Shown here: piece after piece, positions 49,977 to 64,000 of the stretch | How the letters are laid out: every line of letters begins with the position of its first letter | How positions within the stretch are numbered: the stretch's first letter is position 1 | Assembly: GCF_009931435.1 (NCBI RefSeq) | Contig: NZ_CP043414.1 | Reading direction: 5' to 3' (one strand) | Source: Escherichia coli | GTDB taxonomy: Bacteria; Pseudomonadota; Gammaproteobacteria; Enterobacterales; Enterobacteriaceae | Length of the DNA: 64,000 nt | Notes under the pieces: model-generated | The model's input: the letters and a program-made list of their open reading frames with translations, nothing else | Told to the model about the DNA's origin: nothing | The model's database searches: none | Program-made: the position numbers and the translations under genes

Positions 49977-50507
49977 TTACTGCTCTGGCTTTTGTGGCCA
50001 TTCCGGGTTCGCTGAATCCACCCGGCTGAGCAGGACGCTGTAACGCTCCCATGCCGACAGCCGGGTTCGCTCTTCTTCCGTGGCCATATTCAGCCTTACT
50101 GACCGCTCCAGAAGCCGGATGATGGCATCTGCTTCACTGAGCAGCGTGGCCTTGCGTTGCTCTGTCTGTCTGTTGACTTCCTCTGGCGAATACTCACGTT
50201 TCCTCACCTGACCGTCCAGATACATCCACTGCCCCGAATCGTCTGCACGGCGGTTCGCCGTTATATCTGCCACCTCAACAACACTTAATCCCGCCGGATT
50301 AAGCGTTGAGGCATCCCGGGTGATGGCAACGATAATATTGTTATCATCGTAAGCCATCTTTATTGTGTCTTTCTGAAAGTTACTCACTTCTTCATACCAG
50401 TTTCTTCCGTCCTCTGAAAACAACCAGATAACATCAAAATTTTTTGTCAGTTGATACTGAGCAACGGTTTTGGGATTACCTGCTGTAATATTTTTTAAGT
50501 GCTGCAT
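49977..50507 (-). CDS. tfa: Tail fibre assembly protein Tfa
   Basis: 176-aa ORF immediately downstream of the tail fibre gene. Confidence 0.8.
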
Positions 50508-50510
50508 TAC

Positions 50511-53096
50511 TTATACCTGCGATACGTTAAACCATGTGCCGTTTATGTATTTTTGCACCGGCCGGTAAACCGCTGAGTTATCGCCATCAGCATCCCCGAC
50601 AAGACAAAGCCCCGTAATGACATGGCCGGACTTCTCATACGTCACGCCTTTTTGCATGCCCTGAACAACACGCGTACCCAGCCGGATATCCCTGACATAG
50701 CGGATATCAAAATTACTGTAATCGGAAGGATTAACGCGCCCGGACACATTCAGCCCTTTACTGACCTGAATGCTGCCGTTTGTAAAGCGCATTACACGTG
50801 CGTTACCGGCGTAAACATCAAGATTACCGTCGCCGTTTTGTTTCAGGCCTGTGTCGCCCCTCCCCAGCGCAAGTGAATGACCGCCCAGCGTATTCTGTGC
50901 ACCGATACCCACCGCGCCATCCAGGGTCCCGCCCGTTGTCGTGAACAGACGCTCCCAGTCCGCCTCAAAGCCATAGCCATCACGGGCGGAGCGGTAAAAT
51001 ATCCCGCCATTCCGGTAATTCACCCGAAACTGGACCGCAGGGCAGCTGCCTTCCCCTGTATTAAAATGAAGAATTAAGGATGATGCGCCACCATCCTGTG
51101 CACAATAAGCGCCACTGTCCAGGTTCCAGGCGACGGCATCTGTATCGGCGAGCGTTTCCCCGGTTTTTCCCAGCGCAAAGGCCGGTGGCTTGTTTTTCGT
51201 GTTGTAGTCACGACGCCAGCCAGGGGAATAACCATCACCATGATTAATATAGGTAAACTGCGCATTCGCCGTTCCACTTCCGCTGGATGTTGTCGGTGTG
51301 GTTATGCGGATCGTCATCGCTGACTTTATCCCCATCACCTCAATGACAGCGCCGGCGAGATGAATATTTCCGCAGCCCGTATCCGTGATGATTTTATTAT
51401 TACCGTAAGACCAGGAGCCCTTGCACATCCAGTATGGGTGGTTAAATGCGCCCTGAGACTCCAGCCACCCGATAAACTGTGCGGTCGTCCAGTCTCCTGT
51501 CGTTGTGCTTACGGCCCCACCGAAAGCACGGCAGGCACCAATATTTTTCGTAAAGGTGTCTTTGTCGGGGACATCCGCACCGTTCTTATCTTTCTGCAGT
51601 CGTTTCTCAGCATTCTCACAGGCGGCTTTTACTGCCTTTGGTGTTGCCGCCAGTGACTCGGAAGTGCTGTTGGTTGCACTGCTGAGCTGGACTATCCCCT
51701 TTTTCGTCGTGCTCGCATCCTCAAGCGCCACGGCAGACGCAATATCCTCCGCCCGTTTTGCCGCAGTCTCAGCGCGCGTTGCCGCGGATTCTGCCGTGCT
51801 TTTGCTCTGTGCTGCCGCTGTCGCACTGCCAGCTGCCTCTGTCGCCTTCGCGGATGCCGTCGTGGCACTGCCCTGCGCCTCTGACGCCAGCCTTGCCGCC
51901 TCATCTTTTGAAGCTGACGCCGATGATGCTGATGACGCCGCCGAACTGGCGGACGATACGGCTGCCGTTTTTGAGGATTCTGCGCTGGTTTCCGACGCTT
52001 TCGCGTTCGTCTCGGATGTCCTCGCAGCGGAAGCAGACCTCGCTGCTGCAGTGGCCTGTTCAGTGGCTTCGCCAGCCTTCGTTGTGGCTGCTGAAGCGGA
52101 CGATGCGGCGCTTTCTGCCGATTTTCCGGCGGCGGTGGCACTGGCTGAGGCCTCCTCCGCTTTAACTGACGCCTCACGGGACGATGATGCAGCGGCAGTT
52201 TCTGAGCCTGCTGCTGCGGAGGCACTCTGTTCCGCTGCCGTTTCAGAAGACCTGGCGTTCGTCTCAGACGTCTTTGCCGCCTTCGCGGAATTTCCTGCCG
52301 CCGTTGCCGAGGAAGCTGCGCTACCGGCGCTCGAGGCTGCGCTCGTTTCTGATGATTTTGCCGCCTCTTTTGAGGCCGCCGCATCCCTGGCTGACGTGGC
52401 AGCTTCTGACGCTTTCGTGGTCGCGGTGGATGCAGACGTGGCGGCTGATTGTTGTGACGCTGCCGCATTCGTTTCTGACGTTTTCGCGGCACCGGCACTG
52501 GTGGCCGCCGCGCTTTTTGAGGACTCTGCAGCGGCAGCACTTTTTGATGCCTCAGCGGCCTTTGCTGAGGCTGTTTCTGCGCCGGAAGACGCTTCCTGAG
52601 CCGACGTCGCAGCCTGTCCGGCGGACGTGCTGGCGGCGCGTGCTGAGTCCGCAGCATCAGTCGCATGGGTTGCCGCCTCACGGGCTGATGTACCGGCATC
52701 GCTGGCGGATTTTTTCGCGGCTGCCGTGTTCTGTGCCACTGCGGACGCGTTACGCGCCACCTCTTCCACCATCAGTTCAAAACGGCGCAGTGCCTCCGGA
52801 CGGGCATCATCCTCCGTCATGGCACCGAGAAAATCATTCAGCGTACCGGGTTGGGAATCTTCATACACGGTGATGGTCCCGGCATGTGAAGGCGGAAAAC
52901 CGTCAACCAGCAGGATGACACCGTACTGGCCGTACTCAACGTCCATACTGTAACGCCCGGCTTCATCCGGATTTTCTGAGGCCACCGTGTTCACCACCAC
53001 CGTGGTACTGTTACGTTTTGCTTTCAGCTGAATGGTGCAGTTCTGTACCGGTTTACCTGCACCGTCTTTCAGCACGCCTGAAATCTTTACTGCCAT
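50511..53096 (-). CDS. stf: Side tail fibre protein Stf with long Ala/Ser/Thr-rich repeat region
   Basis: 861-aa ORF; conserved N-terminus (MAVKISGVLKDGAGKPV...), central about 350 aa low-complexity repeats, distinct C-terminal domain. Confidence 0.85.
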   Translation of the reverse strand: MAVKISGVLKDGAGKPVQNCTIQLKAKRNSTTVVVNTVASENPDEAGRYSMDVEYGQYGVILLVDGFPPSHAGTITVYEDSQPGTLNDFLGAMTEDDARPEALRRFELMVEEVARNASAVAQNTAAAKKSASDAGTSAREAATHATDAADSARAASTSAGQAATSAQEASSGAETASAKAAEASKSAAAAESSKSAAATSAGAAKTSETNAAASQQSAATSASTATTKASEAATSARDAAASKEAAKSSETSAASSAGSAASSATAAGNSAKAAKTSETNARSSETAAEQSASAAAGSETAAASSSREASVKAEEASASATAAGKSAESAASSASAATTKAGEATEQATAAARSASAARTSETNAKASETSAESSKTAAVSSASSAASSASSASASKDEAARLASEAQGSATTASAKATEAAGSATAAAQSKSTAESAATRAETAAKRAEDIASAVALEDASTTKKGIVQLSSATNSTSESLAATPKAVKAACENAEKRLQKDKNGADVPDKDTFTKNIGACRAFGGAVSTTTGDWTTAQFIGWLESQGAFNHPYWMCKGSWSYGNNKIITDTGCGNIHLAGAVIEVMGIKSAMTIRITTPTTSSGSGTANAQFTYINHGDGYSPGWRRDYNTKNKPPAFALGKTGETLADTDAVAWNLDSGAYCAQDGGASSLILHFNTGEGSCPAVQFRVNYRNGGIFYRSARDGYGFEADWERLFTTTGGTLDGAVGIGAQNTLGGHSLALGRGDTGLKQNGDGNLDVYAGNARVMRFTNGSIQVSKGLNVSGRVNPSDYSNFDIRYVRDIRLGTRVVQGMQKGVTYEKSGHVITGLCLVGDADGDNSAVYRPVQKYINGTWFNVSQV

Positions 53097-53154
53097 ATTC
53101 GTTCCACAAATAAAAAAGGTGCCATTTCTGGCACCCGGTCTGGTTTCTGAACAT

Positions 53155-62399: not shown

Positions 62400-62414
62400 C
62401 GCTGACTCTCCGGA

Positions 62415-63185
62415 TTAACTGGCGGTGACGGTGATTTCTGCAACCGCAGCAAACTCACCATTACCGGATACGACCGGAATGTTGACCTTACCTGCAGCAA
62501 CGCCATTCACGGTGATGGTCATACCACTGACCGACACGGTGGCTTTTGTTTTATCCGCTGACACCGCACGGAAGCTCTTGTCGGTTGCGCCTTCCGGCTG
62601 GAATGCCACGGTCAGCGTGGTGCTCTTCCCTTTCACTACGGAAGCGCTGGCTGGCGTCACGGTCATACCGGTTGCCGCTGTTACCGTGCTGCGATCTTCT
62701 GCCATCGACGGACGTCCCACATTGGTGACTTTCACCGTGCGGGTGATCACTTCCTTCGCCGTCACCGCCTTACCGATACTGCTGACCCAGCCACGGAACA
62801 CATCGACCGTGCCGTTCGGGAAGCGGATTTTATAGGCACGGGTATCGCCTTCATTAAACCACGCCAGCAGCGCCTGCTGCCCCTGCTCTCCGGGCATCCA
62901 CGCCAGCGTGAAGCTGGTATCTCCGGCAGATTTCTGCCCCTGCCCGGTCGCAGTCCAGTCTGCATCTTCATCATCGAGATAGCTGTCGTCATAGGACTCA
63001 GCGGTCAGTTCGCCGGGCGTCAGGTCTTTAACTTTTGCCAGACGCGACCAGTCAACGTCTGAAAGCGGATTCGCATAAGGGTCACCGCTCCCCTTATAAA
63101 CCCACAGGGTGGTCCCGGCACCTTTCACCGGCATTGTAGGATTTGGTACAGGCATAGCGTCCTCACATTTCATAGGTAATGACAT
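62415..63185 (-). CDS. V: Major tail tube protein V with C-terminal Ig-like domain
   Basis: 256-aa ORF; C-terminal about 80 aa beta-rich Ig-like region ([19 protein letters not shown]...). Confidence 0.85.
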
Positions 63186-63558
63186 AAGTCAGATCGGCTG
63201 AACTCCACAGGCCCGCATCATCGTCGCGCCGGTAGTCATAGCCACTGGCCACCATACTGGTGATCAAATCTGACAGTGCCGGGACATCGCTCATCACCGG
63301 ATAAATCCGGGACTCCATCCACGAATCCAGCTCTGAATCCGGCACCTGAGCAGGCAGGAAAACTTCAATATGCAGCTCCGCCTGCCAGGTATCACTGTCC
63401 AGCTCTTCGCCCGTGTATTCAGCGCCGGTGAGATAAACGGCAATTGCCGGAAAATCCGCCTCATCAAAAACAGCGGGGCGACCATCAAAAAGCGTCGCCC
63501 CGGTGTCATGCTTCTCCAGTGCATCCAGTACGGCTGCACGGAGTTCAGTATGTTTCAT
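63163..63558 (-). CDS. U: Tail terminator protein U
   Basis: 131-aa ORF, position and size as lambda U. Confidence 0.85.
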
Positions 63559-64000
63559 CGCTTTATTACCATTCTCAGTTGATGCTGCAGCGCATAGCCC
63601 AGCTCTTTCGGAAGACGTTCACGCCGTATCCGTTCAATATTCTGTTTAAACGCCGTGGTAAGCGGCACCGCCATCGGGATTTTCACCACATCAATGGGGT
63701 AACGGTTTTTCCCGGCCACACGCTGCATGACATGCCACCGGCCATTTTTCAGTTGCTGAATAAACGCGCCGGGAATACGACGGTTTCCCACCACAAGCAC
63801 GCTGCCGCCACCTTTCAGGGATGAACGCTGCCCCTTTTTACGACGTCTGCGGCGGGAAAGGACAACCCGCGCGTTACCCAGCTTGATTACGGGCAAATCC
63901 CCCCGGTTAACCCTGATTCTGGCCTGCGGATTTTTGACCGTGGCCCTTTTCAGCCTGGCCCTTTCCTTTACCAGTTTCCGGCGTACCTTTGTCTCACGGG
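63555..64000 (-). CDS. Z: Tail completion protein Z (5' end beyond window)
   Basis: ORF frame stays open to the window edge (no stop upstream of 63896). Confidence 0.7.
   Translation of the reverse strand, partial: RETKVRRKLVKERARLKRATVKNPQARIRVNRGDLPVIKLGNARVVLSRRRRRKKGQRSSLKGGGSVLVVGNRRIPGAFIQQLKNGRWHVMQRVAGKNRYPIDVVKIPMAVPLTTAFKQNIERIRRERLPKELGYALQHQLRMVIKR

Follow-up and report, generated by a model that had tools for sequence, protein, structure and literature searches.

Organization of the locus

The window, i.e., the whole stretch of 64,000 nucleotides of Escherichia coli DNA that was analysed (contig NZ_CP043414.1), ends with a set of phage tail genes. Between positions 49977 and 64000 the minus strand reads Z-U-V-G/T-H-M-L-K-I-J-stf-tfa; beyond tfa come a spacer and the tRNA gene serT, in which the attachment (att) core is localized (Table 1). 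An earlier sequence-only reading had proposed this gene order, and it is borne out by the map of open reading frames (ORFs), by the Pfam and PHROG families and by the identities with lambda. The lambda proteins of record KT232076 (intact stf) were used as reference in pairwise BLASTP comparisons, and Pfam and PHROG were used for family assignment; each gene matches the corresponding lambda family. The agreement in families, identities and order is far beyond chance: the proteins, which had been described as lambda-like in size and lambdoid in origin, are true orthologues of those of lambda and not unrelated proteins. The tail module itself is thus lambda's own tail-assembly gene set in lambda order. 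Over about 51.2-64 kb, the DNA aligns with phages PhiR42_1, Chlobot, mEp332, ev099 and lambda at 95-97% identity.

Taken with the serT junction described below, positions 49977-64000 are very likely the tail end, on the right-hand side, of a prophage of the Lambdavirus type that a tyrosine integrase inserted into the E. coli chromosome, in the 3′ half of serT.

Table 1. Features of the phage end of the window and of its junction with serT, in order of position.
Feature	Position	Strand	Evidence or remark
serT, tRNA-Ser(UGA), intact	49398..49485	+	ARAGORN; Rfam tRNA, 57.5 bits
att core, 65 bp, tail-proximal junction, equivalent to lambda attR	49426..49490	+	identity block of phage attP and host attB
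att arm	49491..49573	+	replacement terminator 49493-49518 plus T-run; three TTGGTATA repeats
Hairpin, 9-bp GC-rich stem, 12-nt loop, then T7	49749..49786	+	inverted repeat, fold
Promoter-like TTGAAT-N16-TATAAG and ~87-nt element (49841-49927)	49814..49927	+	candidate unannotated small RNA (sRNA) or 3′-end element
tfa, tail fibre assembly chaperone, 176 aa	49977..50507	-	Pfam Caudo_TAP, 5e-30; phrog_136; PDB 5yvq_B
stf, side tail fibre, 861 aa	50511..53096	-	Pfam phage_tail_N; chimera
Hairpin and T-run in J-stf spacer (lom slot in lambda)	53108..53135	-	sequence; architecture like lambda lom-stf spacer
J, tip attachment/central fibre protein, 1159 aa	53155..56634	-	seven Pfam J domains; NCBIfam lambda_TipJ
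I, tail tip assembly protein, 213 aa	56695..57336	-	Pfam Lambda_tail_I; 77% to lambda I
K, tail tip assembly protein, 247 aa	57234..57977	-	JAB/MPN and NlpC/P60 (Pfam); 100% to lambda K over 211 aa
L, minor tail protein, 232 aa	57983..58681	-	Pfam Phage_tail_L; 100% to lambda L
M, minor tail protein, 109 aa	58681..59010	-	Pfam; 100% to lambda M
H, tape measure protein, 853 aa	59007..61568	-	Pfam TMP_2 and Tape_meas_lam_C; 99% to lambda H, same length
T (T part of the G-T chaperone), 144 aa	61561..61995	-	Pfam Phage_tail_T; 100% to lambda T
G, tail assembly chaperone, 140 aa	61977..62399	-	Pfam Phage_TAC_2; 95% to lambda G
V, major tail tube protein, 246 aa	62415..63155 (longest ORF to 63185)	-	phrog_41; 99% to lambda V
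U, tail terminator, 131 aa	63163..63558	-	phrog_37; 97% to lambda U
Z, tail completion protein	63555..64000 (cut by window end)	-	C-terminal 147 aa; 99% to lambda Z 46-192

Tail genes from Z to I

None of the 12 tail ORFs that lie wholly within the window is truncated or interrupted. The Z frame is open over 148 codons to 63998, its start side lying beyond the window. Overlapping starts and stops, which the sequence-only reading had also reported, are found as ATGA at Z/U and H/M and as GTGA at K/I, and as overlaps of 1 nt at M/L and 8 nt at T/H. For I, an alternative GTG start at 57237 overlaps the K stop codon. The lambda slippery heptamer G GGA AAG is localized in the G zero frame at about 62001-61995, the T ORF being in the -1 frame; a programmed -1 frameshift would yield G-T, as in lambda.

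The K ORF begins 5 nt past the L stop codon. The shorter start of some lambda records (211 aa in KT232076) would cut the JAB/MPN domain because the match begins at residue 3; the long form (247 aa), which is also the choice of the Prokaryotic Genome Annotation Pipeline (PGAP), is more likely the correct one. Large plus-strand ORFs inside stf and J (e.g., 51505-52599 and 54157-55290) are taken as antisense artefacts of GC-rich, Ala/Ser-rich coding sequence.

J, Stf and Tfa

J reaches 2382 bits against NCBIfam lambda_TipJ (cut-off 1950) and is 84% identical overall to lambda J by BLASTP, but this value is unevenly distributed. Residues 1-800 are 98% identical; residues 801-950 diverge, with a 27-aa insertion (around 801-900); residues 951-1000 are identical again; the receptor-binding domain (residues 1001-1159) is only about 45% identical. 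The C-terminus is 94-96% identical to the J proteins of VT1-Sakai, many Stx2a phages, PPompW prophages and PhiR55_1 (95-96% over the last 194 aa for VT1-Sakai, Stx2a phages and PhiR55_1), and it is nearer to PDB 9wca («A8 gpJ 713») than to lambda J. These matches assign the receptor-binding domain at the C-terminus to a type that is frequent in prophages of the Shiga toxin (Stx)/enterohaemorrhagic E. coli (EHEC) group. By analogy, it probably recognizes an outer-membrane protein different from the LamB epitope of lambda.

Stf has the same kind of partition. Its N-terminal attachment domain is Pfam PF08400 (phage_tail_N; residues 1-134, 3.8e-73), and residues 1-94 match PDB 9e7m («Tail fiber protein»). 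The identity with lambda Stf is 81% over the first 352 aa only, and BLASTP finds no similarity to lambda Stf past about residue 500, i.e., the T4 gp37-like, OmpC-binding tip of the lambda type was not found. Residues 495-733 align with PDB 8ju3 («Tail fiber protein S/S′») at 2e-133, and chain A of PDB 5yvq resembles the C-terminal tip. By tblastn the distal region is 70% identical to P1 Sv′ and, over the distal 400 aa, 60% identical to P2 H. Along its entire length (residues 1-175), Tfa matches PDB 5yvq_B («Tail fiber assembly protein U», 1e-84); with lambda Tfa it shares 41% identity over the last 65 aa only. The names S/S′ and U, which the PDB table gives without organism, are presumably those of phage Mu proteins. 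Stf is thus a chimera of (i) the lambda N-terminal domain and an Ala/Ser-rich shaft; (ii) a distal half like 8ju3 and P2 H; (iii) a tip like 5yvq_A. Weak Rfam isrG matches on the plus strand at 52058-52517 (about 19 bits, for a gathering score of 100), in the part of stf that encodes the shaft, are taken as chance matches in repetitive GC-rich coding sequence.

Tips of tail fibres have long been known to pass between lambdoid, P2, Mu and P1 phages. The description of the module as lambda-like holds, except that the distal half of stf, tfa and the receptor-binding domain of J are not lambda's. By sequence, the module is nearly identical to that of lambda apart from its exchanged host-recognition tips (the J end and Stf/Tfa). 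This is ordinary, already known biology, i.e., textbook modular tail-fibre mosaicism. The Stf of Ur-lambda binds OmpC, speeds adsorption and is anchored through its N-terminus as a collar (PMC12617516). By analogy with the fibres of Mu and P2, the Stf of the window probably binds core sugars of lipopolysaccharide (LPS) rather than OmpC. The exchanged receptor-binding ends of J and Stf/Tfa predict a host range unlike that of lambda.

Among complete genomes, 15 carry the whole 20-kb junction and tail region at 96-97% identity, and the stf-tfa cassette is present at 97-99% in 32, all with routine PGAP annotation. Overall, the module is found in about 15-32 RefSeq E. coli genomes at 97-99% identity. 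In nucleotide sequence, precisely this combination of stf tip and tfa was not found in any isolated phage of the collection searched.

The serT junction and the attachment site

serT is the sole tRNA gene in the window and is identical at 88 of 88 positions to the native serT of a K-12-like genome without prophage. In genomes without prophage the order at the empty site is hyaA-serT-yccA; in the window, hyaA, hyaB and hyaC are localized upstream of serT. An alignment of the junction in the window with the empty site and with the two junctions of a related prophage in E. coli MS 119-7 delimited the att core. It extends from the anticodon stem to 5 nt beyond the 3′ end of the tRNA, i.e., it lies in the 3′ part of serT and regenerates an intact tRNA, as in integration into tRNA genes. 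The same 65 bp form the direct repeat that flanks the 48.7-kb MS 119-7 prophage and are present as a single copy in the attP of the isolated phage Evi.

The MS 119-7 prophage (locus L001) is 97% identical to the window over positions 44000-64000 and lies between serT and yccA, with the tail fibre genes beside serT and a tyrosine integrase beside yccA; a copy of the core is found at L001 49409. It also carries bor, hokD, dicB, a TerB-like gene and a DNA methyltransferase, and in its early region an 834-aa hypothetical protein (L001 37230-39734). The sequence-only reading had located any accessory or defence cargo beyond 64000; these genes of the relative are candidates for such cargo and alone make that placement plausible, although the prophage of the window may differ in them.

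Phage DNA begins at 49491. The arm next to the core is 99.3% identical to the attP of Evi, through position 49567. In Evi and the O157:H7 serT prophages the arm is common up to 49567 and divergent after it, and other prophage ends, integrated elsewhere, share sequence from 49574 on; because of these two limits, the integration-specific arm is placed at about 49491-49573. The TTGGTATA repeats are at 49533, 49544 and 49556, with an inverted copy at 49548; MS 119-7 and Evi have one more copy, on the side of attP that faces int. These repeats are candidate integrase arm-type sites.

The sequence-only reading had stated that the host-range genes directly abut the attachment site. This could not be kept: the junction is not at 49977 but inside serT, at 49426-49490, and 486 bp of non-coding but structured, functional-looking phage DNA separate the tfa stop codon (49977) from the att core. 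A junction just beyond the serT terminator was also considered and rejected. Megablast alignments to empty sites reached about 49525, yet the identity block ends at 49490; they overran because the phage-borne and native serT terminators are homeologous.

Window positions 1-49400 are ordinary E. coli core chromosome in K-12 order (putA/putP, rut, torS/torA, etk-gfc, appC, hyaABC). No match closer than about 98.3-98.5% identity was obtained for them among the complete E. coli genomes of the collection, which therefore has no close representative of the source strain.

Positions open to accessory genes

The spacer between J and stf is exactly 58 bp (53097-53154), as the sequence-only reading had given it, and resembles the lambda sequence just upstream of stf. 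A tblastn search with lambda Lom gave no match anywhere in the window, and no Lom/Ail moron was found; the statement that neither lom nor another moron separates J from stf thus stands. The I-J spacer is 60 bp and contains a hairpin only. lom is likewise absent from the J-stf interval of HK97; PhiR42_1, the nearest sequenced phage, encodes Lom. In the O157:H7 prophage at the same serT site, sodC is localized at I/J, lom at J/stf, and, in the interval from the tail fibre genes to att, tccP2 with a fragment of espV. The comparison with that prophage clearly shows that I/J, J/stf and tfa/att are optional cargo positions. None of the three holds a protein-coding gene in the window, which is a known variant.

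The spacer between tfa and att

No ORF of credible size or family is found between tfa and the tRNA gene. A protein gene in this spacer was rejected, since only short ORFs are present (the longest has 98 aa and a TTG start), which run through the hairpins and have no family support. The spacer contains two other features, both on the plus strand.

The hairpin at 49749-49786 occupies the position of the annotated sib of HK97 and faces transcription, which would reach it from int/att when the phage is free and from serT when it is integrated. A role as terminator, or one like that of sib/tI, is plausible for it and is held loosely. Its identification as a conserved sib of this int module is weakened, as Evi has the same attP without the hairpin. 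Homologues of the hairpin are found upstream of the conserved element described below in a few other prophage ends (loci L070, L074 and L035); in L033, an IS3-family element is inserted between a hairpin of this type and the conserved element.

The second feature is a conserved element of about 87 nt, which was compared between the window, lambda (L003), HK97 (L006) and loci L007-L081. It is composed of a nearly invariant 5′ part of 47 nt, then a hairpin, then T6 in the window copy. It is 92% identical to the HK97 stretch between sib and tfa (L006 2501-2593) and 94% identical to a stretch of the lambda b region (L003 3835-3915), on the strand read from pL. The genes that flank the lambda copy are the neighbour of the one annotated as EA59 protein and, leftward, the next; by position they are ea31 and ea47. 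The element was found in 75 viral contigs of IMG/VR. Of 5426 complete E. coli genomes, 2921 have it, some in as many as 7 copies, and the copies almost never coincide with an annotated feature. Its upstream flank varies (a dinI-like gene, a P4-type integrase, an IS3-family insertion or an att arm), and its downstream flank is a convergent tfa or a pin-type invertase gene. In K-12, where e14 was the prophage checked, the element is absent from the e14 pinE/mcrA region.

No Rfam family matches the element, at permissive thresholds either: the best hit is the 3′ hairpin of CssrB, with 17.8 bits for a threshold of 76, on the opposite strand. Literature searches, including a full-text search for the element sequence, found no matching paper. 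Several known phage RNAs are excluded by location: PreS/LPR1 of lambda lies between ea10 and ral; svsR is at the 3′ end of cI; the Pas sRNAs belong to the lysis/late-regulatory region, with RusA, Q and the holin/lysozyme genes; AgvB/AsxR are at the PR′ moron site.

The element is thus a candidate for an unannotated sRNA or for a conserved 3′-end element. If it is an sRNA gene, the spacer would not be empty, and 49841-49927 with its promoter-like site would be a non-protein moron expressed from the prophage. This is possible, although we find it doubtful. The element behaves as a conserved unit with sharp boundaries amid many different flanks, and it occurs broadly, in the lambda b region, in HK97, in viral contigs and in more than half of the complete E. 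coli genomes; a -10-like TAAAAT/TATAAG is found at a fixed distance upstream. The pairing of the 3′ hairpin is kept by 3 compensatory pairs and by several G-U pairs that are valid on the plus strand only, and is followed by T6 in the window. On the contrary, in many copies the hairpin is not followed by a T-run, covariation is missing from the first stem, which has some mismatches, and the window copy is 11 nt shorter between the -10 and the element than the most similar upstream-flank variants (e.g., L033, L035, L074). Moreover, in most loci the element comes directly after the dinI-like gene, and it could then be a conserved 3′ untranslated region with its terminator. No expression data were found for it, and the lack of an Rfam match also speaks against an sRNA. 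The more general proposition, that the element would be an unrecognised and very widespread prophage-borne sRNA gene and the tail-fibre/att junction of lambdoid phages a conserved, unannotated site for RNA morons, seems unlikely to us.

The claim of the sequence-only reading that there is no cargo between tfa and the junction is therefore correct as regards proteins; the RNA-like element may be non-protein cargo, and the claim would be wrong in substance if the element is an sRNA gene.

Identity of the prophage and alternative explanations

The window could hold a defective prophage remnant, i.e., tail genes without a functional phage, perhaps domesticated (tailocin-like) or decaying. Cryptic lambdoid prophages are common in E. 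coli, and several observations go in this direction. The window ends inside Z and contains no head, lysis, immunity or int genes, the rest of the prophage being beyond 64000. In the nearest relative, the MS 119-7 prophage, stf is annotated as a pseudogene without C-terminus (L001 2801-4363 and 17293-20332 are the stf and insertion sequence regions), and an IS66-family element (ISCro1) interrupts the head decoration gene D; members of the lineage thus do decay, and that copy is probably defective despite its near-identical tail region. Independently of the question of a remnant, the receptors given for J and Stf are assigned by analogy only. Likewise, it is from position and sequence that the integrase is supposed to bind the TTGGTATA repeats and the hairpins to act as terminators or like sib; the 49749 hairpin is the one missing from Evi.

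Nevertheless, a remnant is quite unlikely. In the window every complete tail ORF is intact, and so are the frameshift site and the translational coupling; functional phages are 95-100% identical to the region; its att core and arm match the attP of an isolated phage (Evi); and relatives carry complete 48-kb prophages with int. Nothing was found that contradicts the identification as a lambda-type prophage. The use of the result is mainly bookkeeping, i.e., the prophage boundary is fixed at serT 49426-49490. What would merit a brief follow-up is the RNA-like element beside tfa, which is conserved but unannotated and is found in lambda and in thousands of genomes.

Proposed mechanism

From lambda biology, the tail genes would be transcribed from the minus strand as the distal part of a late operon antiterminated by Q. 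J, I, L and K would build the tip; H, with the chaperones G and G-T, would set the tail length, G-T being made by -1 frameshifting at G GGA AAG; M would then join, V polymerise, U terminate and Z complete the tail. The side fibres would be trimers of Stf, folded by Tfa and attached by means of the conserved N-terminal domain. Host range would be set by two swapped modules, i.e., the C-terminal domain of J and the Stf tip with Tfa. The phage carries the 3′ 60 nt of serT in the 65-bp core together with its own terminator, and integration therefore regenerates an intact tRNA. Transcripts that come from int/att in the free phage, or from serT once the phage is integrated, would be stopped or processed at the plus-strand hairpins of the spacer.

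Comparison with known systems

The window phage shares with lambda (Ur-lambda) the same genes in the same order, with 95-100% identity from Z to K, an H of 853 aa and the same G-T slippery site. It differs from lambda by (i) the lack of lom; (ii) a distal half of Stf and a Tfa unrelated to lambda's T4 gp37/gp38-like, OmpC-binding tip; (iii) the lack of the b region (ea47/ea31/ea59) between tfa and att; (iv) its localization at serT, whereas the lambda attB is between gal and bio.

With the O157:H7 serT prophages and Evi it has in common the integration site, the 65-bp core, the arm to 49567, a lambda-like tail order and a similar family of J receptor-binding domain. These carry sodC, lom, effector genes or fragments (tccP2, espV) and a short stf, none of which is found in the window phage; the O157:H7 serT prophage with tccP2 is the one we take to be Sp4/CP-933M.

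The distal half and tip of Stf and the full-length Tfa resemble the S/S′-U type of module (PDB 5yvq and 8ju3; P2 H/G; P1 S′). In the window this module is fused to the lambda Stf N-terminus on a siphovirus, and neither an invertible segment nor an invertase gene adjoins it.

The right end of HK97 (J-stf-tfa-element-sib-attP-int) has a similar layout: there is no lom at J-stf, tfa is a few hundred bp from attP, and the element is just past tfa. However, HK97 has other tail genes, lambda's att core and an annotated sib, whereas the window combines the lambda tail genes with the serT core.

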